Origin: a virus
Taxonomy: Duplodnaviria; Caudoviricetes
Strand: one strand, 5' to 3'
Virus record (IMG/VR): IMGVR_UViG_3300048597_000276
Location: 1-53,909 of that record
Length of the DNA stretch: 53,909 nucleotides
Every line of letters starts with the position of its first letter. Position 1 is the first letter of the stretch. Below the pieces are notes generated by a model. The model saw only the letters and a program-made list of their open reading frames with translations. It was not told the DNA's origin and searched no databases. Below, one piece after another: positions 28,205-43,911 of the stretch. The translations under genes were made by a program, and so were the position numbers.

Positions 28205-28592
28205 TGAGCTGCTCGTCGGTCATGTTCGCGATCTCGGTCGCGGTGTGGCGATGCTCGATCGGGCCGCCATCCTTGCCCGTGACCTCCACCCGGTTCCTGC
28301 CGTAGCCGCGCGATCCGCCCTTGTTGTCGAGGTAGTACCGGATCGCCCAGGGCTCGGCGCGCTTGGCCGCCGCCTTCAGGTGCCCCTCGGTGATGTCCAG
28401 ATCGCGCTCCTCGATCTCGCCCAGCGCCTTGCGCAGACGCTCGGACCGCTGGATGCGGTAGCTCATCTGCTGCCGGCTGCAGGGCCGGCCGAAGGTCCGC
28501 TCCAGCAGCTCGGCGGCGACGGCCTGGATCCCCGCCGCCTTGCTCAGGGCGTCGATGATCTGGGCTTCGGTGTAGTAGGGCCGCTTCGGCAT
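28167..28592 (-). CDS. terS: terminase small subunit
   Basis: N-terminal HTH, AIRYYL.NKG..RGY, EVTGKDGGPI; directly upstream of TerL. Confidence 0.82.
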   Translation of the reverse strand: MPKRPYYTEAQIIDALSKAAGIQAVAAELLERTFGRPCSRQQMSYRIQRSERLRKALGEIEERDLDITEGHLKAAAKRAEPWAIRYYLDNKGGSRGYGRNRVEVTGKDGGPIEHRHTATEIANMTDEQLSDYLRQRTLGPS

Positions 28593-28644
28593 GGGCCGGA
28601 CCATAGTCCTACCCGCCGCTCGGTTCAACTCCGCTAGCCCCTTG

Positions 28645-28656
28645 GGTTAGCAACGC
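28645..28656 (-). promoter_or_regulatory. candidate late-promoter motif GCGTTGCTAACC
   Basis: Upstream of terS; repeated at 18557. Confidence 0.5.
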
Positions 28657-28696
28657 GGGCTATGGACCCGCGCGGCGGCCGGCCGTATCATCCGCC

Positions 28697-28762
28697 TCGG
28701 AGCAATCCATTGTTCCCCGCAGTGACTAGGGCCGGCCCCACCAGGGCTGGCCCTTTCTTTTT
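28697..28762 (+). ncRNA. candidate ~65-nt sRNA
   Basis: TGGACC-N17-TATCAT promoter (28663-28691), short hairpin, then GC-rich terminator with TTTCTTTTT. Confidence 0.45.
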
Positions 28763-28780
28763 GGCCTATGCGTAGCGGGC

Positions 28781-28797
28781 CTATACTGCTAGTATAG
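28781..28797 (+). promoter_or_regulatory. early promoter/operator repeat, copy 1
   Basis: CTATACTGCTAGTATAG, perfect 7-bp inverted repeat. Confidence 0.85.
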
Positions 28798-28834
28798 CAG
28801 GCGTAACCAAGAATCCTTCCGCAGGAGTCCGCAA

Positions 28835-29530
28835 ATGGACGCAGCCGTGATGACCGACGCCGATGCAGTCAAGGTGCTGCTGGCCAAGGTCGACCAGCTC
28901 CCCGCCGACAAGCAGGGCTTCGCCCGCGACTTGGTGAAGGGCTACTACCGCTACGGCAACTGGACCGAGAAGCAGGCCCGCTGGGGCCACCGCCTGGCGC
29001 ACCTGGCCAACGGCGAGACGCCGGTCGAGCTGCCCAAGGTCGAGAACCTCGCCGGCCTCGTCGAGATGTTCGACCGGGCGGCGGCAAAGACCAAGTGGCC
29101 GAAGCTCACCTTCGACGAGAGCGCCGCCGGCGTGCCGCTGCAGCTCGGCCGCGCCGGGCCGAACGCCGGGCAGCCGGGCTCGGTGAACTGCACCGACGGC
29201 GGCCGCTACGGGTCGAACCGCTGGTACGGGCGGGTCGAGCGTAGCGGGACCTTCGTCCCCTCCAACGACTGCCCGGCTGAGCTGATCGAGTTCCTCAAGC
29301 TGCTGGCCGGCGACACCGCCAACGTGGCGGCGATGTACGGGAAGCGCACCGGCTGCTGCTGCGCCTGCAACACGCCGCTGACCGACGCCCGCTCGGTCGA
29401 GATCGGCTACGGGCCGGTCTGCGCGAAGAAGTTCGGGTGGCCCTACCCGACCAAGGCCGAGTTCGAGGGCCGCCCCGGGAAGAAGAAGCGGAAGGGAGGT
29501 GGTGACGCCCAGCTGTCCCTCGCGGCCTGA
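28835..29530 (+). CDS. DUF6011-like zinc-binding protein
   Basis: C-terminal GCCCACNTPLTDARSVEIGYGPVC. Confidence 0.75.
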   Translation: MDAAVMTDADAVKVLLAKVDQLPADKQGFARDLVKGYYRYGNWTEKQARWGHRLAHLANGETPVELPKVENLAGLVEMFDRAAAKTKWPKLTFDESAAGVPLQLGRAGPNAGQPGSVNCTDGGRYGSNRWYGRVERSGTFVPSNDCPAELIEFLKLLAGDTANVAAMYGKRTGCCCACNTPLTDARSVEIGYGPVCAKKFGWPYPTKAEFEGRPGKKKRKGGGDAQLSLAA

Positions 29531-29696
29531 TGCGGGCCGCGCGACCCCGAAGGATGGAGGCCATCATGTAACCGATCCGGGAACGCGGGCCGCTCACTCG
29601 TGCGGACGTAGTGCATCCGGCCCGCGCCTTCCCCCTGCAACCGCCCTACGCGGGCTGTTCCAGGGCGATGGTGCCCACTAGACCAGGAGATTTGCG

Positions 29697-30083
29697 ATGC
29701 GATCCATTCTGCTGGCTGCCACGGCAGCCATGGCCGTCATCGGCGTCGCCCAGGCGGCGTCGCCGAACCCCGAGTGCCAGCCCTGGCTCGACATGCGCGC
29801 CGCGGTCGGCAACGAGCTCGAGCGCGTGCTGTGGAGTGGCCGGCTCGAGGACGGGTCCGAGATCCTCATCACCGTGCGCCTCGACGAGGCCGGCGGCTAC
29901 GGCGACACCTTCACGGTCGTCACCAAGCAGGACCGGACCCAGGTCAACGCCGAGGCCTGCATGCTGATGCGCGGCACGACCAACCGGCTGAGCGAGACCT
30001 TCGGCGGTCCCCCGGGCCCGCCGCCGGCACCCGCCGTCGCCCCGGCCGTGATCGAGCCGCCCACCTTCACCCTGCCGGGCTGA
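29697..30083 (+). CDS. secreted hypothetical protein
   Basis: AGGAG RBS; signal peptide ending AQA. Confidence 0.7.
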   Translation: MRSILLAATAAMAVIGVAQAASPNPECQPWLDMRAAVGNELERVLWSGRLEDGSEILITVRLDEAGGYGDTFTVVTKQDRTQVNAEACMLMRGTTNRLSETFGGPPGPPPAPAVAPAVIEPPTFTLPG

Positions 30084-30091
30084 TGCCCTAC

Positions 30092-30119
30092 TTGACCAGC
30101 GGCGCTAGACGGATAGGCT
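30092..30119 (+). promoter_or_regulatory. sigma70-like promoter containing AGCGGCGCT palindrome
   Basis: TTGACC-N16-TAGGCT; palindrome also at 32746 and 37066. Confidence 0.55.
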
Positions 30120-30151
30120 AGCGTCGCCACCCTTCCACAAGGAGACCGAAG

Positions 30152-30490
30152 ATGGATGCTGCCGCGCAGCGCGCATGCGAAGCCCGGTTGGGCGAGTTCC
30201 AGCGCCATATCCGCGACCTGATCGTCGCGCATCTGGCCAAGCACGCCGACCTCCATATCGACACCGTGCGCTGCACGGTGACCAGGGGACCGGCCTGGGA
30301 CAAAGACCAGCTGGCGCAGGTCGCGTCCGAGATCTGCGTCGGCTTGGCCGTCGAGGCGGGCCGCGCGATCGCGTCCAACGTCGCCATCGATTCCGTGCCC
30401 GCCTGCCTGCAGTCGGCAGTCCGGTCCATGGGTGCCGGCGTCGCCGAGGTCCTGGAGGAGCGCATGGCAACGGAGGCCGGCCATGGCTGA
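30152..30490 (+). CDS. hypothetical protein
   Basis: Conserved leader CCTTCCACAAGGAGA. Confidence 0.65.
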   Translation: MDAAAQRACEARLGEFQRHIRDLIVAHLAKHADLHIDTVRCTVTRGPAWDKDQLAQVASEICVGLAVEAGRAIASNVAIDSVPACLQSAVRSMGAGVAEVLEERMATEAGHG

Positions 30491-30815
30491 GCAGATGACG
30501 GCAAAGAAGGTCCAGCCGCGTCCCGACGGGGATACCTTCGAGCGCACGAAGGCGCTGAGCGCCAAGCTGCACGAATTCATGGTCGACTGGTTCGCGGAGC
30601 AGGGGCTCGGCGCCGAGATCCCCGAGCGCGACCGCGCCAAGCTGACCGACGCGCAGATCGCGGCGACCTTCGCCCTGCTGAGTGAGGTCGGCTATCTGTT
30701 CGGCACCATGGGGTTCTCGATGGACGTCGTGCGGAAGATAGCCCTGCCGGTGATCGCGCACGCGCACGCCGAAGTGACCCGCCGCGCCGAGGCCTTGGAG
30801 GCGTCCGATGGATAG
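30483..30815 (+). CDS. hypothetical protein
   Basis: GGAGG RBS; overlaps both neighbours. Confidence 0.65.
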   Translation: MAEQMTAKKVQPRPDGDTFERTKALSAKLHEFMVDWFAEQGLGAEIPERDRAKLTDAQIAATFALLSEVGYLFGTMGFSMDVVRKIALPVIAHAHAEVTRRAEALEASDG

Positions 30816-32586
30816 CCCGAACACGCTGGATCCGCTGGTCCGCTCGGTGCCGTTCCGCACGCTCGAGGCCGGCCCGAACCCGCGCCAGCACGACAAGGCC
30901 TACCTCAAGACCCTGGCCGCCAGCATCAAGGCGCTGGGCCTCTTGCAGCCGCTCGGCGTCGTGCCGATCGACGGCGGCAAGCGGGGCCAGGTCCGCTACG
31001 GCAACGGCCGGCTCGCGGCCCTGAAGCTGCTCAAGACCAAGCCCGAGACGCCGATCCCGATCGTGCTGGTGCGCGACGACGACGAGGCCATGGTCCAGGC
31101 CGCGGCCCTGGCCGAGAACCGCGTGCGCGCACCGATGAACCCGCTGGAGGAGTGCGATGCGTTCTGCGCCCTGATCGACCAGGGCAAGAGCGTGGACGAG
31201 GTCGCGGCGTGGTTCGCAGTCACCGACCGGTTCGTGCGCCAGCGCCTCCAGCTCCGCCAGCTGGCGCCCGCGTTCCGGTCGCTCGTCGTCGCCGGCGAGA
31301 TCACGCTCGACCTCGCGGGCTCGCTGGCCATCCTCCCGGCCGAGCGGCAGGCCAAGGTGCTCGCCGACGCGAAGCAGCGCGGCTGGAAGCCGGGCGGCAA
31401 GGGCGACTACAGCAGCTTCCCGGACTGGCTGATCCACAACGCGATCCGTGATCGCCAAGTCGAGGCGAAGCACGCTCTGTTCGACGTCGAGGCCGCGGGC
31501 ATCAGGATCGACCGCGACCTGTTCGACGACAAGGACGAGGGCAAGGTCCTGGCCGAGGACGTGGAGCGGTTCCTGGCGCTCCAGACCGAGGCCGCGAAGG
31601 CGAAGGGGCCGGCCGTGGCCGAGAAGAACGGCTGTGCCGCCTGGATATGGGACGACGACATCGAAGATCAGCTGTGGACGCTGGGCTACCGCTACGTCCC
31701 CAGGGACAAGGACGGCAACCTGAAGATCGAGCCCGGGCACGAGCTCGTCGCCGTCGGCGATCTTCTGTCGACCGGCGAGCCGCGATGGCTGCTCCAGCAG
31801 CGGCCGATCGGCGGCAAGAAGCCCAAGCCTGACGATGATGATGACGAGGATCGCGAGCGCGATCCGCTCCGCGACTACGCCGAGCGCCACGCCGACCGGG
31901 ACAAGCCCGAGGACCAGGAGAAGGTCGGCCAGTCGCTGGAGAACGCGATCCGCGAGGTCCAGGCGCTGATCGCCGCCGGGCAGCTGCTCGCGGATCCGAC
32001 GCTGGCGCTGCGGCTGGCGATCGTCCAGGTCATCAAGGCCGGTCGGTACCGGTACGCCGCGCACCTGGGCAGCATCGTGCCTGGGCACCCGAGCGTGGCC
32101 GCGGAATCGGTGCGGCAGGCGTTCAAGGTGCTGTCCGACCTGGGCGGGTCGAAGCTGTGCCAGGGCGCTGCGGGCGACGCGAAGGCCTACGGGTCCGAGG
32201 CGCGGAACCTGCACTCGGACCTGATCCCCGCCCGGCTGTACGAGGGCGTGATGGCGGCCGACGAGAGCCAGCTGCCGCAACTGCTCGCGGCCGCGATGGT
32301 GCTGGCGATGGACCCGTGCGGCAGCCTCGTGCAGGCCGTGCGCAAGCACAGCACCGTGCCCGAGGGCAAGTTCTACTGCCTGGGCGAGTACGAGCTGGGC
32401 AAGCTGACCAAGGACCAGCTGCTCGAGCAGGCCAAGGCGGCGGGGCTCGAGGGTGTGGACGCCAAGACCAGAAAGGAGGTCGTCAAGGCGATCATGGCGA
32501 AGGGTCTGGCGGCGCGCGACGCCGGTAGCGAGGCGCCGATCCTGCCGATCCTCGCCAAGGCCAGGAACCGCACCGGGGACTGGTGA
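30808..32586 (+). CDS. long ParB/Srx-domain protein (plasmid/ICE type)
   Basis: NPR, LAASIKALGLLQPLGV, GNGRLAAL, LAENRVRAPMNPLEE, HTH. Confidence 0.85.
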   Translation: MDSPNTLDPLVRSVPFRTLEAGPNPRQHDKAYLKTLAASIKALGLLQPLGVVPIDGGKRGQVRYGNGRLAALKLLKTKPETPIPIVLVRDDDEAMVQAAALAENRVRAPMNPLEECDAFCALIDQGKSVDEVAAWFAVTDRFVRQRLQLRQLAPAFRSLVVAGEITLDLAGSLAILPAERQAKVLADAKQRGWKPGGKGDYSSFPDWLIHNAIRDRQVEAKHALFDVEAAGIRIDRDLFDDKDEGKVLAEDVERFLALQTEAAKAKGPAVAEKNGCAAWIWDDDIEDQLWTLGYRYVPRDKDGNLKIEPGHELVAVGDLLSTGEPRWLLQQRPIGGKKPKPDDDDDEDRERDPLRDYAERHADRDKPEDQEKVGQSLENAIREVQALIAAGQLLADPTLALRLAIVQVIKAGRYRYAAHLGSIVPGHPSVAAESVRQAFKVLSDLGGSKLCQGAAGDAKAYGSEARNLHSDLIPARLYEGVMAADESQLPQLLAAAMVLAMDPCGSLVQAVRKHSTVPEGKFYCLGEYELGKLTKDQLLEQAKAAGLEGVDAKTRKEVVKAIMAKGLAARDAGSEAPILPILAKARNRTGDW

Positions 32587-32592
32587 AGGTGG

Positions 32593-32621
32593 TTGACCGG
32601 CAGTCTAGCACCGCCTATGTC
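32593..32621 (+). promoter_or_regulatory. promoter of the candidate antisense sRNA
   Basis: TTGACC-N17-TATGTC. Confidence 0.6.
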
Positions 32622-32626
32622 AAGGT

Positions 32627-32730
32627 TTCTTCGAGGGTACGGCTCACGCCGTTCTCTCTCTTGTGGAAGGAAGGGCCGTTTCCGGCCCTAATTCGGGGCC
32701 GGCCTCGCGAGGGGCTGGCCCTTTCTTTTT
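32627..32730 (+). ncRNA. candidate multi-target antisense sRNA (anti-RBS of early genes)
   Basis: Hairpin 32639-32652, unpaired TCTCTCTCTTGTGGAAGGA 32653-32671, hairpin 32672-32689, terminator 32695-32730; the core is complementary to ~18 early-gene leaders. Confidence 0.72.
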
Positions 32731-32802
32731 GCGCCCGACTTGTCCAGCGGCGCTGGTCGGTCGGTGTATCACTTCCCAACCGCGCACGAAGGAGTAGCGC
32801 AC

Positions 32803-33147
32803 ATGCCGAAGCATCCTGAACCGCAGGCCGAGGCGACCGACGATCCGGTCGTGATCCAGCTCGGCGATCCCGATGCGATCCCGACCACGTTCAAGATCCA
32901 GCTCCCCAATGGCGAGGACATCACCCCCACCGTCCTGGCCGAGCTGCAGACGGCGGCGCACCAGATGGCCGGCAGTCGGGGGCAGGAAGGCCGCGCGGCT
33001 CTGCGCGAGATCGGAACGCAGTTGAACGACATTGGCGGGCTGCCGCTGATGCAGGCCGCCTGCTACCGGGTGAAGGAGCTGTGCGGGCGCGAGGCGTTCG
33101 CGCAAGTCCAGTACGCCTGGGACGGCATCGGGGAATGGCGGCCGTGA
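32803..33147 (+). CDS. hypothetical protein
   Basis: AAGGAG RBS; ends AWDGIGEW. Confidence 0.7.
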   Translation: MPKHPEPQAEATDDPVVIQLGDPDAIPTTFKIQLPNGEDITPTVLAELQTAAHQMAGSRGQEGRAALREIGTQLNDIGGLPLMQAACYRVKELCGREAFAQVQYAWDGIGEWRP

Positions 33148-33356
33148 GGCGGCGCTGCTGCTCGCCGGTGGTCGACCGGCTGTCGCGGTTGCCGGCCCGG
33201 CAGCTCGGCCAGCTCGCCGACCGCACCATCGCCCAGGCACGGACCGTGGAGCGGCGCGACGGCGGCGGGCCGGCCTACCACCCCGACGACATGGCCCGGC
33301 TGCGCACCGTGGGACGCGCCATAGTCGCCAAGATACGCGGCGACTGTTGCGATTGA
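33144..33356 (+). CDS. hypothetical protein
   Basis: GTGA overlap with the upstream stop. Confidence 0.45.
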   Translation: MRRRCCSPVVDRLSRLPARQLGQLADRTIAQARTVERRDGGGPAYHPDDMARLRTVGRAIVAKIRGDCCD

Positions 33357-33420
33357 CCTGACTACTGGGCGGGCGCTGGCCTTCACTGGCGCCCGCTCAT
33401 TCTGCACTTGCATAACTCCA

Positions 33421-33437
33421 CTAACCTGCTAGTATAG
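33421..33437 (+). promoter_or_regulatory. early promoter/operator repeat, copy 2
   Basis: TTGCAT-N16-TAGTAT; CTAACCTGCTAGTATAG; hairpin 33367-33398 upstream. Confidence 0.85.
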
Positions 33438-33474
33438 CAGCACTAACCAATGAACCTTCCGCAGGAGAAACGAC

Positions 33475-34212
33475 ATGGCCGACAGAGCCAGCATCTTGAA
33501 CAAGCTGCGCGCCCTGCGCAGCAAGACCGTCGACAACGGCTGCACCGAGGCCGAGGCGATCGCCGCGGCCGAGAAGGTCGAGGCGCTGCTGCGCGAGTAC
33601 GCGATCAGCCGCGACGAGCTCGACCAGCGCGACTTCCAGGAAGCCGCCTACCGCGCGGCCGACTTCAAGCGCGACCACCGTATCCGTCACCGCAGCCTGT
33701 GGCTGGTGATGCAATCGGTCGCCGAACTCTGCGAGTGCAAGTCCTGGTGGCCGACGAAGGAAGGCGGGCAGCACGGCCTGGTCGCCCGCTTCTTCGGCGA
33801 GGAGCAGGACGTCGACATGGCCGTCTACCTGATGGCCGTGATCGAGAAGGCGATCGAGAACGAATGGTTCGTGTTCTCGTTCGGCGACCCGAAGGCCCAC
33901 CAGACCAGCTTCACCGACGGCTGCGCCTACCGCATCCACGAGCGGCTGCGCGAGTTGCGGCTGCACACCGAGCAGTTCGTTCGCGCCGCCGGCAAGGGCC
34001 TCGTCGTCCAGACCAAGGCCATGGTGCGCGCGCGCAAGCTCGAGGAAGCCGGCGTCAAGATCAGGACGGTCCGCGTCGGGATGAACCAGGGCACATCGTT
34101 CCAGTCGGGCTACGCGGCCGGCAACAACGTGGCCTTCCACCAGGGCGTGCGCCACGACGGCAAGGCGCGCCCCAACCATTCGGCCGTGCCGCTCCGCCTG
34201 GGCCACGGCTGA
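33475..34212 (+). CDS. DUF2786-like protein
   Basis: ILNKLRALRSKTVDNGCTEAEAIAAAEK...SFTDG...GYAAG. Confidence 0.75.
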   Translation: MADRASILNKLRALRSKTVDNGCTEAEAIAAAEKVEALLREYAISRDELDQRDFQEAAYRAADFKRDHRIRHRSLWLVMQSVAELCECKSWWPTKEGGQHGLVARFFGEEQDVDMAVYLMAVIEKAIENEWFVFSFGDPKAHQTSFTDGCAYRIHERLRELRLHTEQFVRAAGKGLVVQTKAMVRARKLEEAGVKIRTVRVGMNQGTSFQSGYAAGNNVAFHQGVRHDGKARPNHSAVPLRLGHG

Positions 34213-34223
34213 GGAGATCGACC

Positions 34224-34412
34224 ATGCCTGCTCCTGTCTTTCGGTGGCTCGCCGTCCTGTACGCCCTGTTCGGCGCCGCGATCGCGCTGGTGTGGGCGAC
34301 CGGGATCGAGCTGCCGCAATGGATGAGTGACGCCGCGACGCTGCTGGCGCCGCTCAACTGGGCCGGGCTGATCTGGCTGGGCTGGATGCTCCGCGACAGC
34401 CGCGGCCGCTGA
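34224..34412 (+). CDS. small two-TM membrane protein
   Basis: GAGGAG RBS; two hydrophobic segments. Confidence 0.6.
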   Translation: MPAPVFRWLAVLYALFGAAIALVWATGIELPQWMSDAATLLAPLNWAGLIWLGWMLRDSRGR

Positions 34413-34465
34413 GTTTCGACCGGGGCGGGCATCGGGCCCGCCCCACCTTCCGCAGGAGAGAAACG

Positions 34466-34702
34466 ATGCAACTGTACCCCGCGACGGACACCGTCGCCCA
34501 GGAGCACGTCGAGCGGCTGCGCGCCGCCGCGATGCACGACCAGGCCTGGGACATCGAGCAGCTCGCCATCCTGGCGCGCGATCTCCTGGTCGCCTGCCGC
34601 GCCGCGCACCTGCAGGCCCGCCAGAGCTGCGCCGATGCGGTCGACATTGTGACCCAGGTCCTGGCCAAGCACGAGCTGCTGCCGGCCGAGCAGGAGGGCT
34701 GA
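34466..34702 (+). CDS. hypothetical protein
   Basis: Conserved leader at 34446. Confidence 0.65.
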   Translation: MQLYPATDTVAQEHVERLRAAAMHDQAWDIEQLAILARDLLVACRAAHLQARQSCADAVDIVTQVLAKHELLPAEQEG

Positions 34703-34704
34703 GC

Positions 34705-35205
34705 ATGTCCGCGTTCTACTGTGGCTACCCGCATCTGGCCGAGCTGGCGAAGGCGCTGGTCGAGGTCGCGCGCCGCAACGAGCCGCTCGAGGATCTGGCC
34801 GCGACGCTGCACAAGGAGAACGTGCGCTCGCTGTGCGCCCGGTACGAGGACGACACGCCGGAAATGTACGACGGCGAGTACGCCCGGCTGCTGTTCGAGC
34901 TGACCGGCCCGCGCGTCGTCACCGACCCGGTCGTGCTCCAGAAGATGGTGCACTGCTACCGCTATCAGGCGTGCGAGCACCCGGAGTGGAAGGAGAGCGA
35001 TGCGTTCCGGCTGATGGCCGTGCTCGAGGAGGCGCTGCAGCCGCTCCTGCCCGAGCTGGTCCCGTCCCGCCACGGGCCGAAGTTCAAGCCCGAGCCCAAG
35101 GGCTACGACAAGGCCAACGGCTGGCCCTACGAGCCGGGGTATGTGGCCCAGCCGACGGTGTTCGCCCCCGCTCCCGACCTGCCGCTGTTCCGGAGCGTGC
35201 CATGA
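34705..35205 (+). CDS. conserved phage hypothetical protein
   Basis: ENVRSLCARY...CYRYQACEHPEW motif. Confidence 0.7.
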   Translation: MSAFYCGYPHLAELAKALVEVARRNEPLEDLAATLHKENVRSLCARYEDDTPEMYDGEYARLLFELTGPRVVTDPVVLQKMVHCYRYQACEHPEWKESDAFRLMAVLEEALQPLLPELVPSRHGPKFKPEPKGYDKANGWPYEPGYVAQPTVFAPAPDLPLFRSVP

Positions 35206-35501
35206 AGCCGGGGCACACGCCGGGCGACTGGAAGCTGGAGCTCAGCCGGTGGCCGACTGGCAAGCTCGCCTGGAGGCCGTTCATCTACGCGGTGGGCGCG
35301 CCCGAGGGCAGCCGGCACATCGCCGAGCTGTGCGAGGAGAACCCGAACCTCGACGCCAACGGCCGGCTGATCGCGGCCGCACCGAAGATGCGGGCCTCGC
35401 TCCAGGCTCTGCTGGGCGACGACCTGCGCCCCGAGAACCTGGGCGAGCGTCTCGACGCCGCCCGTGCCCTCCTGGCCGAGATCGACGGAGAGGGGCTGTG
35501 A
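35202..35501 (+). CDS. phage hypothetical protein (HTPGxW...ANxRLIAAAP family)
   Basis: Motif; ATGA coupling. Confidence 0.7.
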   Translation: MKPGHTPGDWKLELSRWPTGKLAWRPFIYAVGAPEGSRHIAELCEENPNLDANGRLIAAAPKMRASLQALLGDDLRPENLGERLDAARALLAEIDGEGL

Positions 35502-35764
35502 GGCGCCGGTACCGCCGCGACGGGGCGCCCTACCGCTCGGCCGAGCCGAAGATGATCGCGGCCAAGTTCCCGTCGGAGTGCCACGACTGCGGGAAGCCGT
35601 ACCAGCTCGGCGACCGGGTGCTCTGGCAGCCCGGCACCACCTGGGCCTTCGGCCAGGCCTGCGGCTGCGCGAAGCGACGGCTGGAGACGATCGAGGCCGC
35701 GCGGCTCGAGCAGATCGGTGCGGAAATGGACGAGCTCGCGAACGAGACGATGCACGCGATGTAG
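35498..35764 (+). CDS. small Cys-containing hypothetical protein
   Basis: AKFPSECHDCG zinc-ribbon-like motif; GTGA coupling. Confidence 0.55.
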   Translation: MRRRYRRDGAPYRSAEPKMIAAKFPSECHDCGKPYQLGDRVLWQPGTTWAFGQACGCAKRRLETIEAARLEQIGAEMDELANETMHAM

Positions 35765-35869
35765 CGGGCTCCGGCGGGTCGACGCTTGCCCGGACGTCGA
35801 CCCGCGTCCTTCCAGTATCACAGGGCTAACCCGGCGGTCGAGAACCGCCAATCGCAGGAGAGTGAGACG

Positions 35870-36127
35870 ATGCTACCCGTGACACCGATGCGGTGGTCGA
35901 AGCCGTTCCCGAGGGAAGGCCGGTACGTGGTGATCGTGGGCGATCGCCCGGGCGGCGACGCGCTGATCCTGCGCGGGGCCACCGACCACCTGGACGTGGC
36001 CGCGGCCGACTTCGGCGACCAGTCCGCCGCCACCGGCCGCTCGACGCAGGAATGCGTCCAGCTGATCGACACGCAAGCCGTCAACGGCCCGGCCGTCCTC
36101 GGCTGCCTCGTGATGGGAGGCCGCTGA
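35870..36127 (+). CDS. hypothetical protein
   Basis: Leader CGCAGGAGAG. Confidence 0.55.
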   Translation: MLPVTPMRWSKPFPREGRYVVIVGDRPGGDALILRGATDHLDVAAADFGDQSAATGRSTQECVQLIDTQAVNGPAVLGCLVMGGR

Positions 36128-36468
36128 TGCCCCTTCCTCCCCTCCCCATCTGCCACACGCCCTGGGGCTTCGCGGACAGCTGCCAGCCCTACGGCGACGG
36201 GGTCATGTTCGTCGGCACGCCGAGCCACGGCGGGTTCTACGTCGACGAGGAGCGGCTGAAGCAGATGCCCGAGGTCCTGGCCCTTATGGGCGAGCCCGGC
36301 CCCAGCTGCGGCCGCTGGTTCGAGGAGGACTGTGATTGGGCCGCGGTGGCGATCGCCTTCCCCGACCGGTTCGAGGCCGATTACGTCGCCGCCGCCTGGA
36401 AGACGCTCGAGCGATGGCGCCCGGCCCAGTTCGTCAGTGCCCAGGCCAGCAGGAGTGCGGCAGCATGA
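36127..36468 (+). CDS. DUF7007-like protein
   Basis: TPWG...TPSHGGF...WFEEDCDWA. Confidence 0.75.
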   Translation: MPLPPLPICHTPWGFADSCQPYGDGVMFVGTPSHGGFYVDEERLKQMPEVLALMGEPGPSCGRWFEEDCDWAAVAIAFPDRFEADYVAAAWKTLERWRPAQFVSAQASRSAAA

Positions 36469-37001
36469 TCGTGGACAATCTGAAGGTCGAGGTCGATGGG
36501 ATGGCGGAGTTCTTCCGCGAGCAGATCGCCGGCGGTGCGCCGACCTTCCCGATGTGGCGGGTGCGCGGCGGCGACGGCAACCTCTACATCGTGGCGACGC
36601 CGTTCACCGACCTTCACTCCAAGCGCCTGTCGGTGCTGATGATCCGCCACGTCTGCGCCGCGTTCCGGGCCACCAGCGTCGTGTTCGGCGTCGAGGCCTG
36701 GGCCGCCGACGCGACCGATGATCCCGCCGTGGCCGAACTCCAGCCGTCGCAGCGCAGCGACCGGCGCGAGATCATCATGGTGCACGGCAGCTCCTCCAGC
36801 GGCGATCAGGCCCACCGCGAGATCCAGTTCGACCGGCAGCCCGAGGGTCCACCGGTGTTCAAGGATCTGCCGGTGAGCCGGGTCGAGAGCTGGATGTTCC
36901 GCGATCTGTTCGAGTGGGGCGACCTGAGCCCGGCCAGTGTGGAGCTGGCGCGGCGGGCGGTCCTGAAGCACGGCGAGCGGATGACGCCCGGCCCCAACTA
37001 G
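36465..37001 (+). CDS. hypothetical protein
   Basis: EAW...PSQRSDRREII motif; ATGA coupling. Confidence 0.65.
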   Translation: MIVDNLKVEVDGMAEFFREQIAGGAPTFPMWRVRGGDGNLYIVATPFTDLHSKRLSVLMIRHVCAAFRATSVVFGVEAWAADATDDPAVAELQPSQRSDRREIIMVHGSSSSGDQAHREIQFDRQPEGPPVFKDLPVSRVESWMFRDLFEWGDLSPASVELARRAVLKHGERMTPGPN

Positions 37002-37019
37002 TTCTCCCTGCGCCGACTT

Positions 37020-37054
37020 GGCCGGGGCCAATATTCGGCCCCGGCTGCTCTTTT
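37020..37054 (+). terminator. intrinsic terminator
   Basis: GGCCGGGGCC-AATATTC-GGCCCCGGCT followed by CTCTTTT. Confidence 0.65.
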
Positions 37055-37072
37055 GGCCTTCCGGTAGCGGCG

Positions 37073-37089
37073 CTATACTGATAGTCTAT
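37073..37089 (+). promoter_or_regulatory. early promoter/operator repeat, copy 3
   Basis: CTATACTGATAGTCTAT. Confidence 0.75.
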
Positions 37090-37127
37090 CCTTTGTAAAC
37101 CAATAAACCTTCCGCAGGACGACGAAG

Positions 37128-37673
37128 ATGGCTACTGAGCTGCAGGCTGTGAACTTCCCTTTCTATGAGCTCGAGCATGACCCGTTCAAGTACGGGTTCG
37201 ACGGGTGGCGCGTCGCCATCGTCCTCGACGCCGGCGAGGGCAAGAAAGCCGCCACGCTGTACCTGCCGGGCAGGCTGCAGACCGTGAAGGTCGACCCCAA
37301 GCGGCTGGCGACCAAGGCCACGCCCGTGAAGCTGAGCGTCGCCTTCCAGCGTGAGACGATCGCCCGCAAGGCCCGGATCTTCCGCCAGGGCGGCACCAGC
37401 TACGACCGCAAGGCGACGGTGTTCGTGCTCAAGGCCCTGGGTGCCGGCGCGCGCACGGTCGCCGAAGTCTCGCAGCCGGCTCCGATCCCGGAGCCCACCG
37501 AGTGGAAGCTGACCGTCGACACGGCCCTGTCGATCCGGGCCGAGCAGCGGATGTTCTTCCGCGCCCAGGGGCTGACGTTCGCCCAGGACGCCAAGCCGAA
37601 GCGGATGGCCGACGTCAAGGTCACCTTCGACAAGACCGGCGGCCGCGTCGAGCAGATGCAGTTCGGGTTCTGA
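37128..37673 (+). CDS. hypothetical protein
   Basis: Conserved leader at 37108. Confidence 0.7.
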   Translation: MATELQAVNFPFYELEHDPFKYGFDGWRVAIVLDAGEGKKAATLYLPGRLQTVKVDPKRLATKATPVKLSVAFQRETIARKARIFRQGGTSYDRKATVFVLKALGAGARTVAEVSQPAPIPEPTEWKLTVDTALSIRAEQRMFFRAQGLTFAQDAKPKRMADVKVTFDKTGGRVEQMQFGF

Positions 37674-37726
37674 GTTCCACCGCGGGCCGGCGCGGTGCCG
37701 GCCCGCCAATCCGCAGGAGAGAGACG

Positions 37727-37960
37727 ATGACGAAGGCCGAACTGATCGCCCGGTTGGGCGATCTCTCGCCCAGCCAGGTTGCGGAGCTCGACGAGCGGAT
37801 CGACGAGCTGGTCCACGACGCCAAGTCCAAGGAGGCGTCGGACATCAACAACGACGGGGTCGAGGCGCAGCTGAACTACCTGTTCGGCGCCGACACCGAC
37901 GAGGTCGGCGAGGACCTCGCCCAGGTGGTCAACCCGCCCGCGCTCCAGGCGGAGGCCTGA
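37727..37960 (+). CDS. small acidic protein
   Basis: Leader TCCGCAGGAGAGAGA; LDELVHD...ASDINNDGVEAQLNYL. Confidence 0.65.
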   Translation: MTKAELIARLGDLSPSQVAELDERIDELVHDAKSKEASDINNDGVEAQLNYLFGADTDEVGEDLAQVVNPPALQAEA

Positions 37961-37963
37961 GCG

Positions 37964-38254
37964 ATGCCGAAGTGGACGGTAGGCGTGAGCCGGGTGAGCC
38001 GGCTTGTCGAGCGGGTCGAGATCGAGGTCGAGGCCCCGACCGCCGAGGCCGCCAGCGAGCAGGCCTGGGCTAAGGTCAACGATAGCGAGGACGACAGCTG
38101 GGCCGACTGGCAGCAGCACGACGTCGAGGTCCAGGACTACTCGGTGGGGATCCCGCTGCCGGCGATCCCGGGCGTGTGGTCGCTCCCGGCCGGCCAGGTT
38201 CTCGCGGCCGACCCCGAGCTCGCGCTCGCCCAGCTGCGGCGGGCCGGGCTGTGA
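37964..38254 (+). CDS. small acidic protein
   Basis: GGAGG RBS; IEVEAPTAEAA motif. Confidence 0.6.
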   Translation: MPKWTVGVSRVSRLVERVEIEVEAPTAEAASEQAWAKVNDSEDDSWADWQQHDVEVQDYSVGIPLPAIPGVWSLPAGQVLAADPELALAQLRRAGL

Positions 38255-38451
38255 GCGACGAGGCCGCCCGGCGTAAGGCGGTCGCCGAGCTCGTGCTCGC
38301 GGCCGAGCGCAAAGTCCAGGCGATCCTGATCGAGTTGGCCGACAAGATCGGCCGGCACGGGATGACGTTGGACAGCGTTCGGGTCGACGGCCGGCGCTTC
38401 TCCAACCTGCGGGTCGAGATCCACGTCTCGCCCGACGACATCCCGTTCTGA
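38251..38451 (+). CDS. hypothetical protein
   Basis: GTGA coupling. Confidence 0.55.
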   Translation: MSDEAARRKAVAELVLAAERKVQAILIELADKIGRHGMTLDSVRVDGRRFSNLRVEIHVSPDDIPF

Positions 38452-38461
38452 GGAGAGAACG

Positions 38462-38737
38462 ATGGCTGATGTCACCCTCGACGGCTGCGCTGAGTGGGAC
38501 AAGCTCACGCCCTGGCAGCAGAAGGCGATCGGCGCCACGGCGATCGAGATCGTGCTCTGCTGGTGCGGCGTCGACGCCGAGCCGGTCCACCCCGCCACCG
38601 AGCGCACCCGCATCTTCGAGGCGGCCGAGACCGCACTGAACGACCGGCTGCAGACGGCGGTGATCGCCGCCGTGCCGCAGGTCGACGCGGACGTCGTGCC
38701 GCTGCCCGCGAGCCACCAGACCACCGGAGACGATTGA
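38462..38737 (+). CDS. hypothetical protein
   Basis: AGGAGAGAACG leader. Confidence 0.6.
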   Translation: MADVTLDGCAEWDKLTPWQQKAIGATAIEIVLCWCGVDAEPVHPATERTRIFEAAETALNDRLQTAVIAAVPQVDADVVPLPASHQTTGDD

Positions 38738-39045
38738 TGGCTGCACTGTTGATCCCGGTCGAGGGCGAGCCTCGGCTGCTGTACGACGCGGACCGGCCGC
38801 CGACGCTGGACGAGGCGCAGCTCGCCGTGGGCGGCTGGGTCGAGAAGATCACCTTCCGCCGCGAGACGTGGCTGGTCCAGGAGGAAGGCCGGGTGCGGGG
38901 CGCGCCGGAGAACCCGCGGGCGACGCAGATGTATTGGGACCGGGCGCGCCGGAGCAAGCGCGACAAGGTGGTGCCGGTGCCGCCGGGCGGGGCACTGGTC
39001 GGGCCGGTTCTTCTCCTGGAGGGCCGCGCGCGCTGGAACTGGTAG
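38737..39045 (+). CDS. DUF3846-like protein
   Basis: LLIPVEG...LDEAQLAVGGWVE...EEGR...N.RAT...LVGPV. Confidence 0.7.
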   Translation: MAALLIPVEGEPRLLYDADRPPTLDEAQLAVGGWVEKITFRRETWLVQEEGRVRGAPENPRATQMYWDRARRSKRDKVVPVPPGGALVGPVLLLEGRARWNW

Positions 39046-39108
39046 TAATCGAGCCTGCATGACTTGGCCGGGGCTGCGGCCCCGGTATTTTCTGCTGGTC
39101 AGACTGCG

Positions 39109-39125
39109 CTAAACTGATAGTATAG
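39109..39125 (+). promoter_or_regulatory. early promoter/operator repeat, copy 4
   Basis: TGGTCA-N16-TAGTAT; CTAAACTGATAGTATAG; terminator hairpin 39068-39091 upstream. Confidence 0.8.
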
Positions 39126-39163
39126 TGAGCGTGAACAAGAACACCTTCCACGGAACCAAGACG

Positions 39164-39409
39164 ATGATGAAGCCGACGATTCACCTGAACGGGACGAGCC
39201 GCAGCGAGATCGAGCGCCAGCTCGGCGAGGCCGCCGCCAAGGTGCAGGACGCGATCAAGGCGGTGTGCGCCGCCGGCCCGAACGGCCGCGACTACTACCC
39301 GCAGGGCGCCGCCGCTCTCGACCAGGCCATGGCCGAGCACCGGTCGCGGGTCGAGCGGCTCGAGAGCGTCTACCGCGAGATCGAAGCCATCTTCCTGGGG
39401 CTCGGCTGA
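39164..39409 (+). CDS. conserved phage hypothetical protein
   Basis: PTIHLNGTS...PNGRDYYPQG motif. Confidence 0.7.
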   Translation: MMKPTIHLNGTSRSEIERQLGEAAAKVQDAIKAVCAAGPNGRDYYPQGAAALDQAMAEHRSRVERLESVYREIEAIFLGLG

Positions 39410-39645: not shown

Positions 39646-39920
39646 AGACGTTCGCCGAGTTCCAGGCCACGCGCCGCGAGGTGCCGCACCTGGGCGATGT
39701 GATCGACGAGCCGTTCGTCAACAAGACGCCCGGGTTCGTCTACCTCGATCGGCTCTACATCGAGAAGCGGGCCAAATGGTGGCCGGAGGAGCTGAAGGCC
39801 AGGGGCCAGTTCTACCTGCGGATCGAGAACCAGGAGTACGTCGCCAACGAGCTCGATCTGCTGGAGTGCCGGCTCTACGTGTGGGCGGCCGACGCTGGCT
39901 ACCTGGGAGAGAAGCGGTGA
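39642..39920 (+). CDS. hypothetical protein
   Basis: GTGA coupling; GGAGAGG RBS. Confidence 0.65.
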   Translation: MKTFAEFQATRREVPHLGDVIDEPFVNKTPGFVYLDRLYIEKRAKWWPEELKARGQFYLRIENQEYVANELDLLECRLYVWAADAGYLGEKR

Positions 39921-39925: not shown

Positions 39926-40057
39926 ATGTCCGATGCGTGGCTGCTGTTCTGGCTGGCCCGCGAGTTCCCGCCCGACGGCGATCTGTACCTCTCGCGGCTC
40001 TGGTGGACCGGGTTCACCCGCGACCACCCGGCCCTGGCCCAGGGGAAGTGCCCATGA
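39926..40057 (+). CDS. small hypothetical protein
   Basis: Fills the gap between coupled genes. Confidence 0.4.
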   Translation: MSDAWLLFWLAREFPPDGDLYLSRLWWTGFTRDHPALAQGKCP

Positions 40058-40293
40058 TCCGTCCCCTGCTCGAGCGCCTGCGGCTGGCGCCAGCGCACCC
40101 GACCTTCACCGCCCTGGTGAAGGACGCAGCCGACGAGATCGAGAAGCTCGAGCGCGAGAAGGCCGAGCTGGTGGCTGCGCTCGCGCTCGCTGCGGCGGAC
40201 CTTGAGGTTTACCCCGCGACCCAAGGCCCTGGCCTGGACCGCCGCCTTGCCAAGATCCGCGCCCTGCTGGCCAGGCATGGAGCGCAGCGATGA
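40054..40293 (+). CDS. hypothetical protein
   Basis: ATGA coupling; DAADEIEKL motif. Confidence 0.6.
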   Translation: MIRPLLERLRLAPAHPTFTALVKDAADEIEKLEREKAELVAALALAAADLEVYPATQGPGLDRRLAKIRALLARHGAQR

Positions 40294-40577
40294 CCGCCCG
40301 TCGCCGGCCGCCGGTGCCCGAACCTGAGCCCCTGCCCTACGTGGTCGAGGTCCAGGGCCGCGAGATCCGCCACGCGAACCTGTCGCTGCAGATGTACCTC
40401 GACGGGCGCGAGGGTGCTGGCTGCAACTGGCGGCCGCTGCGCTACGACGAGGCCGAGGCCATGGTGGTGCTGGTCGGGCTGGTCCACCCTGCCGGCCTGC
40501 GCGAGCAGTACGGGTTCTTCCCGATCGCCCCGGTCGGGAACAGCGCGGCCACATTCCAGCTGAAGGCGGGAGCGTGA
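40290..40577 (+). CDS. hypothetical protein
   Basis: ATGA coupling. Confidence 0.55.
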   Translation: MTARRRPPVPEPEPLPYVVEVQGREIRHANLSLQMYLDGREGAGCNWRPLRYDEAEAMVVLVGLVHPAGLREQYGFFPIAPVGNSAATFQLKAGA

Positions 40578-41172
40578 TGGGCGCAGTCGTTAGCATCGAG
40601 GCGATCCCCACGACGTACAGGGGCACCAGCTTTCGCAGCCGGGCCGAAGCGCGATGGGCGGTGTGGTTTGACCTGATCGGCATGCAGTGGGTCTACGAGC
40701 CCGAAACTTTCGTTGTTGCATCAGGTGAGGACTACCGCGTTCTATACTGCCCTGACTTCCTTATCAAAGGCCCGTCCCCTTCTACTTCGAGGTCAAGCCA
40801 GACGATTTCGTGTCTGCTCCACTTGGTACCTACTACCCCGAACAGTGCAAGTTGGATGCGTTCGTCGACGCATCTGGCCAGGATCTGGTGGTCGCTCTTG
40901 GTCCGCCGCGAAGCGGGCACGCCCTGATCGTGTTTGAAGCGGGGGTGGAAGTCGGACAAAGGAGCGGATGGCGCGAGGTACGTTGGCAATTCACGTCTTG
41001 CCGCGGATGCGGCGGGCTAACCATAGATCCCGACGAGCCCGGCTTCGTCGATAGCGGCCGTCTTGTAATCATGCTGCACGAGGAATCCCACAAGTGGTGC
41101 GGCGAGAAGTTCGGCGGATTGGAGTACGAGCCCGAGTTGCTCGATCGCGCCGCCGGTTGGCGCTTCTGGTGA
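40577..41172 (+). pseudogene. PD-(D/E)XK-type nuclease split by a -1 frame change near 40770-40782
   Basis: First frame: TTYRGTSFRSRAEARWAVWFD...WVYEPE...YCPDF; second frame continues FYFEVKP. Confidence 0.75.
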
Positions 41173-41222
41173 CCTAGAGTTTCCTGCGTGGAAGCGCCGT
41201 GGCGATCGTGCCGCGGCCGACT

Positions 41223-41257
41223 GGCGGCGGGTCGCAAGGCCCGCCGTCCTCTTTTTT
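41223..41257 (+). terminator. intrinsic terminator
   Basis: GGCGGCGGG-TCGCAAGG-CCCGCCGTC followed by CTCTTTTTT. Confidence 0.75.
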
Positions 41258-41470
41258 CCTATCGGGCCGGCGATGCAGCTCGAGGCCCGATCGAGCGGGA
41301 CCAGGCCTGACCCAGGTCCCTTACAAGGCTCACCCAGGACTGCCGTTCCAGGCCCCTATACTTACCACGGCCACAGTGTTCCACGCATTCTGTCAATCCA
41401 CGCCTAACTGAGACTTCCAGCCCATCATTATTCGGAAGACGGCGCGTCGCTTTTCGCTGGACTACCATCA

Positions 41471-41487
41471 CTATACTGCTAGTATAG
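41471..41487 (+). promoter_or_regulatory. early promoter/operator repeat, copy 5
   Basis: TGGACT-N16-TAGTAT; perfect CTATACTGCTAGTATAG. Confidence 0.85.
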
Positions 41488-41518
41488 CGTCATAACAATC
41501 TTCCGCAGGACGACGACG

Positions 41519-43116: not shown

Positions 43117-43911
43117 CTACTTCTGGGCCCTGGGGTTCGACCGGTCGACCTTGATCGACATGGTGTCGATCTTGCCCCTGGTATCGAGGGCCGTGCGTTT
43201 GAGGGAAACGTGGGCGCCCCAGGTCTCCTTGAGGAGCCGGGTCGTTGCCACCCACTTGTCGGTCGTGATGAGGCCGACGTTGCCGCCCTGGCCGCCGAAG
43301 ATCATCCCGCAGTCGAAGTAGAAGCGGCTGTCCATGTAGCCGAACCGGTCCTCGAGCAGGGTCCGGATCGACAGGTCGATCGCGTTCCGGCCTGCGAACC
43401 TGGGGTCCATCTTCCGCCGGCGGGCCGGGCCCATGATGCCGAAGACGTTGGACAGGATCGGCTTCACCGTGGCCGGCTTCATGCCGATGTCGAACAGGGT
43501 CGAGTTGTTGGTGCGGGAGAAGCAGAACGTCGATGAGCCGACGTCGTGGGCCGCGCGGGCGGCGTTCTCGATGATCTGCAGGATGTCGGCCGGATCGGTG
43601 ATCCGCCCGCCGCGGCCGCTGCGCCGCCAGCCGGTCATCACGCTGACGTGGTGAAAGTCGTCGTCGACGAACACCAGGATCTCGTTGGCGACGTTGTCCA
43701 TGATCCAGTTGCAGACCACGGCGAACCCGTCCATCGGCGGATGGAGGAGCAGCTGGTCGGAAGGCACGAACGGGGCGTAGGCGGCCAGCTCCCGCTCGTC
43801 GATGCAGACCATGGCCGTGGGCAGCAGCTCGCGAATCCGCGGCATGTTGTGCGGTCGCCGGCGGGAGGGCACGACGATGCCGATGTCCAGCTCCGGGGCG
43901 TAGTCGGTCAC
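43117..43911 (-). CDS. GT-A glycosyltransferase, TAGT/GREB1-like
   Basis: GTG start overlapping the upstream stop; IVVPSRRRP...E...Y...CNWIMD...VFVDDD...IDLS...GGN. Confidence 0.72.
   Translation of the reverse strand: MTDYAPELDIGIVVPSRRRPHNMPRIRELLPTAMVCIDERELAAYAPFVPSDQLLLHPPMDGFAVVCNWIMDNVANEILVFVDDDFHHVSVMTGWRRSGRGGRITDPADILQIIENAARAAHDVGSSTFCFSRTNNSTLFDIGMKPATVKPILSNVFGIMGPARRRKMDPRFAGRNAIDLSIRTLLEDRFGYMDSRFYFDCGMIFGGQGGNVGLITTDKWVATTRLLKETWGAHVSLKRTALDTRGKIDTMSIKVDRSNPRAQK

Follow-up and report, generated by a model that had tools for sequence, protein, structure and literature searches.

Results

A non-coding unit behind a ParB-like gene

The subject of this study is a short non-coding unit at positions 32593-32730 of IMG/VR record IMGVR_UViG_3300048597_000276, a linear viral contig of 53,909 bp (69% G+C, estimated to be 73% complete). 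This whole stretch is called the window below. The unit carries an inverted copy of a leader sequence that precedes many early genes of the same phage. Open reading frames (ORFs) were accepted as genes when their third-position GC content (GC3) exceeded 0.80, and most of those accepted have values of 0.84-0.97. By this measure the window contains two gene blocks. The minus-strand block (1-28,650) encodes the terminase, a portal protein fused to a head-morphogenesis domain, a protease and the major head protein. The plus-strand block (28,790-53,909) encodes three ParB-like proteins, DUF6011 and DUF2786/DUF7168 proteins and many small ORFs; a gene at 43,908-44,597 is its sole minus-strand exception. 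A first-pass annotation made from the letters of this DNA had spoken of a prophage and of lysogeny maintenance. Neither term has a basis here: the contig is linear and viral, and the 24 different proteins scanned included no integrase and no repressor.

The features of the locus are as follows.

30808-32586, plus strand: ParB-like gene, 592 aa (Pfam ParB_N and HTH_ParB; PHROG ParB-like); stop codon at 32584-32586
32593-32621, plus strand: putative weak promoter, TTGACC (32593-32598)-N17-TATGTC (32616-32621), directly after the stop of the ParB-like gene
32633-32658, plus strand: first hairpin, GAGGG-U-ACGGC / UCAC / GCCGU-U-CUCUC, in both the minimum-energy and the centroid fold
32650-32674, plus strand: anti-leader core, CGTTCTCTCTCTTGTGGAAGGAAGG; its minus strand is a member of the leader family, CCTTCCTTCCACAAGAGAGAGAACG, without GGAG, followed by GTG and a 10-codon frame
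32659-32665, plus strand: heptamer UCUUGUG, open in the fold and flanked by sequence held in weak stems
32672-32689, plus strand: second hairpin of the fold, AGGGCCG-UUUC-CGGCCCU
32695-32730, plus strand: intrinsic terminator with a 12-bp stem (32695-32722; 9 G-C pairs) and the tail TTCTTTTT, the top-ranked terminator-like site of the scan

An AU linker separates the second hairpin from the terminator. The fold of the unit has a predicted free energy of -57.8 kcal/mol (z = -4.4), and none of 200 shuffled sequences was as stable. The first-pass annotation had described a promoter followed by a unit with no credible ORF, and both parts of this description were borne out: the TTGACC-N17-TATGTC sequence is present, and GC3 is 0.55-0.69 in all frames of both strands across 32583-32819. 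These values rule out a protein-coding region on either strand of that interval. The distance from the stop codon to the terminator stem is 108 nt at the unit, compared with ~17 nt (37001 to 37019) and ~21 nt (39045 to 39067) elsewhere, so that the unit looks like a discrete insert. The inverted copy lies within ~140 nt of non-coding DNA that runs from the ParB-like gene to the terminator. Its terminator is 89% identical to 28729-28763, part of a paralogous terminator at 28728-28763, and a promoter downstream of the unit is 86% identical to 30085-30112.

No Rfam family matched the unit at the gathering thresholds; the best sub-threshold match was Atu_C4, at 27.8 bits against a threshold of 80. 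Within 32646-32735 of the plus strand, sX11 (22.5 bits), BjrC68 (21.6), anti-hemB (19.7) and mmgR (19.3) also appeared below threshold. The Atu_C4 and sX11 alignments span only the second hairpin, the linker and the terminator. These matches to proteobacterial small RNA (sRNA) families reflect a generic sRNA 3′ build and not membership. A survey of inverted repeats across 28500-53909 was uninformative because GC-rich background repeats dominate it.

The leader family of the early genes

The sequence that recurs in inverted form at the unit is a leader with the consensus CCTTCC-R-CA-GGAGAGA, placed 16-21 nt upstream of the ATG of ~16 plus-strand early genes. All 18 sites that the first-pass annotation had named lie directly upstream of plus-strand starts, and the start codon is ATG in 18/18. 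The list was too wide in one respect, in that the GGAGAG of the Shine-Dalgarno sequence is all that the sites at 35853 and 38452 have in common with the family. The full CCTTCC[AG]C is found in 10 of the 18 leaders and TTCC[AG][CT] in 13. At 12 of the 13 sites with TCC[AG]C the distance from this element to the ATG is 16-18 nt, and at the remaining one it is 21 nt. This near-fixed distance ties the motif to translation initiation.

A weight matrix was built from the 13 plus-strand TTCC[AG][CT] sites, with the inverted unit left out. Scanned against both strands of the whole window, it gave 14 matches of at least 15 bits: 13 on the plus strand, between 28.8 and 51.4 kb, and one on the minus strand, which is the unit. 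None was found at the starts of late genes. Eleven leader segments were folded and gave z scores of -1.4 to +1.2 relative to shuffled sequences, that is, they are unstructured. A stable hairpin in which CCUUCC sequesters the Shine-Dalgarno sequence was ruled out by the same comparison.

Eight of the leaders are preceded by a repeated promoter cassette, CTAWAC-TGCTAGTATAGCAG, that includes a 15-bp palindrome; in our reading of its sequence it would provide an extended -10 element (TGnTAGTAT). At five of these eight leaders (those of the starts at 28835, 37128, 39164, 41519 and 51380) a T-rich terminator lies just upstream. The leaders of 34466, 37727 and 46189 instead follow a GC-rich hairpin located 3′ of the preceding stop codon. 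No such hairpin was found in the fold before the leader of 48846.

The eight cassette copies are at 28786-28800, 33426-33440, 37078-37092, 39114-39128, 41476-41490, 44792-44806, 48247-48261 and 51332-51346, each ~15 nt upstream of its leader, in the form CTAWAC-TG(C/A)TAGTATAGCAG. The 15-bp palindrome, CTGCTAGTATAGCAG, is perfect in four of them. The cassette resembles an extended -10 promoter that overlaps the operator of a dimeric regulator; speculatively, the three ParB-like helix-turn-helix proteins could be KorB-like global regulators. The GC-rich hairpins between the previous stop codon and the internal leaders (34422-34444, 37682-37706 and 46146-46168) lack U-tails; they may be RNA-stabilizing or processing structures that mark cistron boundaries. 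The second hairpin of the unit is the inverted counterpart of these hairpins.

The unit is an inverted member of the leader family

On the plus strand, 32650-32670 reads CGTTCTCTCTCTTGTGGAAGG. Allowing up to three mismatches, no other match to it was found, and none is expected by chance. Read on the minus strand, the copy scores 23.0 bits with the leader matrix and ranks 8th among all positions on both strands, the best position outside the family scoring 13.0 bits. No other family-grade match lies on the minus strand, and no other lacks a gene. The surrounding architecture is inverted as well: on the minus strand a hairpin, GGGCCG-GAAA-CGGCCC, precedes CCTTCCTTCCACAAGAGAGAGAACG, which is the arrangement of the hairpin-type leaders such as those of 34466 and 37727. 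The unit is thus an orphan inverted member of the start-associated leader family of this phage. An extended homology to one donor leader was ruled out, as the homology covers 27 nt at most.

Predicted pairing of the unit with the leaders

The first-pass annotation had proposed that the plus-strand RNA pairs with the ribosome-binding leaders, and had given 16 contiguous pairs at 46171 (one G-U), 16 at 34446 (two G-U) and 15 at 50072 (two G-U). These counts are exact. At least 12 contiguous pairs are possible with 11 of the 18 leaders, compared with 29 of 5000 random 38-nt windows, even though windows over real sites were included in the latter. For pairing strength, ensemble free energies were computed for the RNA (105 nt), for every start region (60 nt) and for the two together, and self-structure was subtracted. 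The values for the individual leaders are listed below.

28815-28837, plus strand: leader of the DUF6011 gene (promoter-proximal type), -14.2 kcal/mol
30131-30154, plus strand: leader of the gene that opens the operon ending in the unit, 12 contiguous pairs, -12.5 kcal/mol
33455-33477, plus strand: leader of the DUF2786/DUF7168 gene, -16.0 kcal/mol
34446-34468, plus strand: leader of a 78-aa gene, hairpin-preceded, 16 contiguous pairs, -24.3 kcal/mol, the strongest predicted partner
37108-37130, plus strand: leader of a 181-aa gene, -14.1 kcal/mol
37710-37729, plus strand: leader of a 77-aa gene, hairpin-preceded, 15 contiguous pairs, -18.8 kcal/mol
39144-39166, plus strand: leader of the start at 39164, -10.3 kcal/mol
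41500-41521, plus strand: leader of the second ParB-like gene, -9.1 kcal/mol
44822-44845, plus strand: leader of a 71-aa gene, -15.4 kcal/mol
46171-46191, plus strand: leader of a 76-aa gene, hairpin-preceded, 16 contiguous pairs with one G-U, -19.5 kcal/mol
48277-48299, plus strand: leader of the start at 48297, -14.4 kcal/mol
48822-48848, plus strand: leader of a 132-aa gene with a longer spacer (24 nt from CCTTCC to ATG), -10.5 kcal/mol
50073-50096, plus strand: leader of a 227-aa gene, 15 contiguous pairs, -13.1 kcal/mol
51361-51382, plus strand: leader of a 68-aa gene, -10.0 kcal/mol
52961-52979, plus strand: leader of a 256-aa gene, -9.6 kcal/mol
53758-53776, plus strand: leader of the last, cut-off gene, -15.8 kcal/mol

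Among the 67 start regions of the window (48 on the plus and 19 on the minus strand), 17 of the 18 listed leaders occupy the top 17 places, with -9.1 to -24.3 kcal/mol, as had been anticipated for an RNA directed at them. The best other start region gave -8.7 kcal/mol, late genes and genes without the motif being at that level or weaker, and the leader of 38462 gave only -4.7 kcal/mol. In these calculations the predicted specificity for the shared leaders is real.

Predicted transcription of the unit

The neighboring genes are all on the plus strand and no terminator precedes the one at 32695, so that the transcript of the ParB-like gene must run into the unit. From this strand context, a plus-strand RNA containing the anti-leader should exist at least as the 3′ untranslated region (UTR) of the ParB-operon mRNA.

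A module of the same build is found at 28663-28763. It begins with a promoter-like sequence that the consensus scan listed, TGGACC-N17-TATCAT (28663-28691), and continues with a hairpin and the terminator that is 89% identical to that of the unit. This similarity lends modest support to a promoter at the unit. The RNA of the 28663-28763 module would be 69 nt long (-32.2 kcal/mol, z = -3.9) and contains no anti-leader sequence. The module occupies the divergent gap between late and early genes, where there is no plus-strand gene upstream to terminate, and it may encode a second small RNA, possibly antisense to the leader of the late operon.

Elsewhere in the plus-strand block, a stretch of ~900 nt at 40577-41519 has a lower G+C content (65.8% in the bin 40001-42000) and no gene by GC3-based calling. 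It holds a strong plus-strand terminator (41223-41248) and a minus-strand promoter-like site (41498-41470).

Relatives of the phage

DNA from 30001 to 38000 had no match in a phage collection. When the ParB-like protein was compared with phages by tblastn, the best matches were 31-37% identical over 19-45% of the query; among 5.8 billion proteins the best match was 37% identical at 41% coverage, and none was found in viral contigs or genome contigs. The terminase identified one relative among viral contigs, L004, whose terminase is 53% identical; 13 other loci matched over ~50 residues only. Genome contigs gave a single terminase match at 25%, and a terminase alignment (A2) searched against viral contigs returned L004 again together with three matches at 23-29%.

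Searches with the motifs themselves gave a similar picture. The unit, as an exact 23-mer, had no match in viral contigs. A gapped pattern of palindrome plus CCTTCC had none in viral contigs and one unrelated chance match (L018) in metagenome contigs. The palindrome 16-mer occurs at 56 viral loci, all unrelated and of at most 47% GC, and the leader 16-mer at 41 viral loci, none with the promoter and leader context.

The 12.5 kb of L004 contain no CCTTCC. They do contain a leader, aaCCGCAGGA(G/A), 8-9 nt before ATG in 4/4 occurrences on both strands (626 and 1816 on the minus strand, 2071 and 2826 on the plus strand), each after a -10-like hexamer. This indicates that the CCGCAGGAG leader core is older than the phage studied here and is common to distant members of the group.

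An analogous arrangement in Cluster K mycobacteriophages

Start-associated sequences (SAS) are described for Cluster K mycobacteriophages as a 13-bp asymmetric motif with an internal AGGAG, found 3-7 bp upstream of the start in 11-19 non-structural genes. In the account of Pope et al. (2011) that deals with them, the function of SAS is given as not known and the partner, "either RNA or protein", is left open (PMC3203893). The passages on SAS in reports from 2024-2025 still call the role unknown (PMC11373665, PMC12699233), and one of these describes about half of the SAS as joined to an upstream promoter-bearing element (ESAS) (PMC12699233).

The leader family of the present phage is of the SAS kind by its position, its restriction to early genes and its orientation, as an analogue and not a homologue. 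Both motifs are asymmetric, include the Shine-Dalgarno sequence, lie a few nucleotides before mostly ATG starts of non-structural genes and run in one orientation, and in both cases there is a single inverted copy. The host groups are unrelated, and so are the sequences: compared with the Cluster K consensus GGGATAGGAGCCC, the leader motif (CCTTCCRCAGGAGAGA) showed no sequence match. It also extends further upstream of the Shine-Dalgarno sequence. The inverted copies differ in placement, between a gene and a terminator in the early region here and in a stem loop within the gap reported for the late transcription start in Cluster K.

Mycobacteriophage Anaya has 16 forward SAS and one inverted. 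The latter follows a terminator in the 385 bp that separate gp96 from gp97, a gap conserved in 182 Cluster K records.

59767-59904 of Anaya (39768-39905 of locus L076): region of the inverted SAS; the same gap is present in L121-L130

We aligned the region from 11 phages, ten of which were picked across the identity range from 40 of the 182 matching records. A TAGACT hexamer ~95 nt upstream is invariant in this alignment. For structure, an alignment of 10 phages was used (A5), Yuna being left out since its loop segment is deleted. RNAalifold predicts a long stem with the inverted SAS in its apical loop, which reads CCUCCUAUCC. Across the 10 phages the pairing holds in 92.2% of the cells, compared with 31-43% when the partners are slid against each other, although the stem was derived from the same sequences as were tested and the slide control therefore favors it. 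Double-sided changes were seen at 8 pairs, compared with 1-4 when slid, and 8 was reached by one of 500 shuffles. In a limited literature search we found no description of this conserved, covarying stem. In Adephagia, late transcription is reported, in the part of the source concerned with it, to begin in the gap between genes 92 and 93, which is where the stem lies (PMC11373665). On this predicted structure, the late transcript of Cluster K phages probably presents the inverted SAS in a loop close to its 5′ end. Such a placement fits an anti-SAS role at the switch from early to late expression.

Discussion

The observations above describe an orphan, inverted leader with a stable fold on the transcribed strand, and a plausible explanation, which we would nevertheless place somewhat below even, is that it is a functional anti-leader RNA acting in trans. 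From its sequence, fold, strand context and pairing specificity we infer a transcription start, an abundance, pairing in vivo and repression along the following lines. The module behind the ParB-like gene, consisting of a weak promoter, a hairpin, a partly open core, a second hairpin and a strong intrinsic terminator, would be carried on the 3′ end of the ParB-operon mRNA and possibly also be made as a separate ~100-nt RNA starting near 32628. Pairing with the unstructured CCUUCC-R-CA-GGAGAGA leaders would be nucleated by the open UCUUGUG together with the sequences beside it, CUCUCUCU to one side and GGAAGGAAGG to the other. Pairing would cover the Shine-Dalgarno sequences of ~14-17 early genes and lower their translation, either as feedback or as an early shut-off. 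Several considerations argue for a working anti-leader. The orphan copy has lost exactly the translation signals and has kept the part that would pair. It sits in an extra, well-folded, terminator-ended stretch on the transcribed strand of a compact genome, and its predicted targets are open. By analogy, an unrelated phage group, Cluster K, shows the same oddity inside a conserved structure.

A number of results weigh against this explanation. The first-pass annotation's fold of hairpin, unpaired core, hairpin and terminator is seen, except that 9 nt of the 21-nt core (32650-32658) are locked in the 3′ arm of the first hairpin. Its independent promoter is present as a sequence and has a counterpart in the paralogous 28663-28763 module; the -10 hexamer TATGTC, however, is without the conserved final T, for which reason the consensus scan did not list the site, and a separate promoter is doubtful on this sequence. 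No public sequencing runs, RNA or other, were found for 28500-38499. Searches of viral, genome and metagenome collections turned up no relative that carries the motif. The Cluster K comparison is uneven as well: the inverted SAS CCTCCTATCCCC is exact in just 5 of the 11 aligned phages, is replaced by other C/U-rich strings in three (Amohnition, Krueger and Bryler) and is absent from three (Yuna, Hurricane and SirPhilip). K3-like phages keep SAS without the loop motif. Covariation of SAS and anti-SAS in Cluster K was ruled out, since Krueger has ~17 standard SAS and a drifted loop.

The pairing itself shows no special tuning. The mean duplex energy of the unit with the 18 leaders is -28.7 kcal/mol, and when the reverse complement of each leader was used as a mock antisense RNA the means were -21.2 to -35.0 kcal/mol, so that the unit ranks 8th of 19; shuffled versions of the unit gave -14.3 ± 2.1 kcal/mol. 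An RNA specially optimized to pair with all leaders is ruled out by this comparison, and the word 'master' in the first-pass annotation does not hold, as a typical leader in reverse complement pairs just as well. The same annotation had pointed to deviations that preserve G-U pairing. Against the 18 leaders there are 76 mismatched columns, of which 47 break pairing and the other 29 can still form wobble pairs; the wobble-compatible share, 0.38, is the highest of the 19 real and mock antisense sequences (0.06-0.35 for the others), although only marginally above the level that family membership brings. This share is a weak hint that the A-for-G changes of the unit (U in the RNA) extend its reach over the leaders. 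Together the two controls show that the pairing specificity arises because the unit is an inverted family member, and beyond its descent from a leader there is no sign that pairing with many targets was selected for.

Descent of this kind is also what the main rival explanation proposes. The unit may be a functionless relic, left by inverted duplication or recombination of a short 'hairpin + leader' module, e.g. through an exchange among the repeated terminator, promoter and leader cassettes; its pairing would be incidental and the copy merely not yet lost. We regard this as a real possibility, if less likely than a functional RNA. It would account for a unit that behaves as an average family member read backwards (8th of 19), for homology to other leaders that ends after ~20-27 nt and for surroundings that are a patchwork of paralogous pieces (the terminator with its 89% and the downstream promoter with its 86% identity). 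The Shine-Dalgarno sequence and start codon are degraded, as decay predicts, and no orphan inverted copy is present in the available 12.5 kb of L004, which also counts against a working anti-leader. Decay alone, however, sits less well with a tightly packed genome, in which other gaps are ~17-21 nt and 100 nt of junk would be unusual, or with the loss of only the translation signals while the CCTTCC-ACA-AG-AGAGAGAACG part stayed intact. An RNA that comes from the same early region and can form 12-16 contiguous pairs with 11 start regions is unlikely to be inert, and in Cluster K the structure around the inverted copy is conserved. A different possibility is that the RNA acts only in cis, the 3′ UTR of the operon 30152-32586 pairing with its own 5′ leader at 30131 and setting the translation or stability of that operon. 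The 30131 leader and the reverse complement of the unit have in common the 11-nt CCTTCCACAAG, the longest exact block with any leader; use of the promoter near 30085 together with the terminator at 32695 would put both ends on one transcript, and a strong separate promoter would not be needed. Yet this leader is merely the 11th-best predicted partner (-12.5 versus -24.3 kcal/mol for that of 34466) and nothing keeps the 3′ UTR from meeting the other leaders, which makes an exclusively cis-acting role improbable.

Two further explanations place the function outside the plus-strand RNA. The minus-strand copy might work as a real leader for the 10-codon frame, or mark the 5′ portion of a transcript antisense to the ParB-like gene; transcription could start, for instance, at the palindromic cassette at 33426-33440 read backwards. 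The family architecture is kept on that strand (hairpin, CCTTCC, purine run and a start codon 20 nt after TCCAC), and in our own reading the palindrome CTGCTAGTATAGCAG offers TGcTATACT, a good extended -10 element. The copy nevertheless has no GGAG, its start would be GTG compared with ATG in 18/18 relatives, and its frame has a GC3 of 0.65 and stops after 10 codons without a coding signal. A minus-strand ribosome-binding role is therefore unlikely, and the alternative raised in the first-pass annotation, the ribosome-binding site of a real peptide, is disfavored. The promoter scan listed no minus-strand site nearby, and the conserved flanks of the cassette are asymmetric and point rightward; taken with the points on translation, this leaves any minus-strand function with a small chance. 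Partition sites often adjoin ParB-type genes downstream, and the copy lies directly downstream of one of three ParB-like genes. It could accordingly be a DNA-level site read by a protein, such as an orientation-dependent 'stoperator'-like block or a target of one of the ParB-like proteins, in which case the inverted copy would act on leftward events or as a centromere-like element. Asymmetric, orientation-linked repeats with a DNA-level role are mentioned for Cluster A phages in the Cluster K account cited above (PMC3203893). The spacing of 16-18 nt to the ATG in 12/13 sites and the overlap with the Shine-Dalgarno sequence point instead to translation and not to DNA binding; the motif, unlike partition sites, is not palindromic, and a separate 15-bp palindrome already resembles a phage operator. 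We therefore give a protein-binding site little weight.

If the unit is a trans-acting anti-leader, its closest counterparts are known antisense RNAs. P4 CI RNA is an antisense immunity RNA of a phage. The c4 RNA of P1/P7 is another, as described in the relevant part of a recent review (PMC12197685). In these systems, as predicted here, a phage-made trans RNA blocks translation through short complementary stretches over the ribosome-binding region; they are excised from a longer transcript and have one or two sites of action within a single operon, whereas the unit has ~14-17 separate predicted targets. GcvB and RsaE are multi-target bacterial sRNAs, host-encoded, that recognize a shared leader element with imperfect seeds of 7-12 nt. 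They resemble the candidate in using one seed for many mRNAs, in pairing at or just upstream of the Shine-Dalgarno sequence and in their build of hairpin, AU linker and Rho-independent terminator. Here, in contrast, the target is a long, near-identical phage leader and the RNA is its literal inverted copy. The icaR mRNA of Staphylococcus aureus carries, in its 3′ UTR, an anti-Shine-Dalgarno stretch that pairs with the start region of the same mRNA. The location of such a stretch upstream of a terminator and its complementarity to its own start region would be as in the ParB operon, if that operon is a single transcript; icaR involves a single gene in cis, whereas the stretch studied here matches many other leaders better than its own. 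RegA of T4 is a repressor of many phage early mRNAs that recognizes a shared feature of their start regions. The result, a global shut-off of early mRNAs, would be similar, with a protein as the effector in T4 and an RNA as the candidate here.

The proposed mechanism is thus a variant of known antisense control, as represented by c4, CI and the multi-target seed sRNAs. What is unusual is that many genes would be addressed through a standardized leader. Phage sRNAs covered in the relevant part of the 2025 review act on single phage genes or on host genes (PMC12197685), and in a limited literature search we found no phage RNA that addresses a dozen or more phage genes through a standardized leader. 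Should the anti-leader be inactive, the phage would still provide a clear case, from beyond the actinobacteriophages, of a start-associated leader family.

We tentatively propose that phages with a common start-associated leader may also encode a matching anti-leader RNA as an RNA-based global switch of early-gene translation, while regarding this general form as less likely than the activity of the present unit. If it were true, the whole leader set would be titrated at once, by a small RNA or 3′ UTR in this phage and by a stem loop of the late transcript in Cluster K, and the start-associated sequences described in 2011 would have a first function. The Cluster K question is directly testable in Mycobacterium smegmatis phages, an existing laboratory system. 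In the phage described here, one ~100-nt RNA would control the translation of a dozen or more genes via their shared leader, which would explain why some phages standardize their ribosome-binding leaders.

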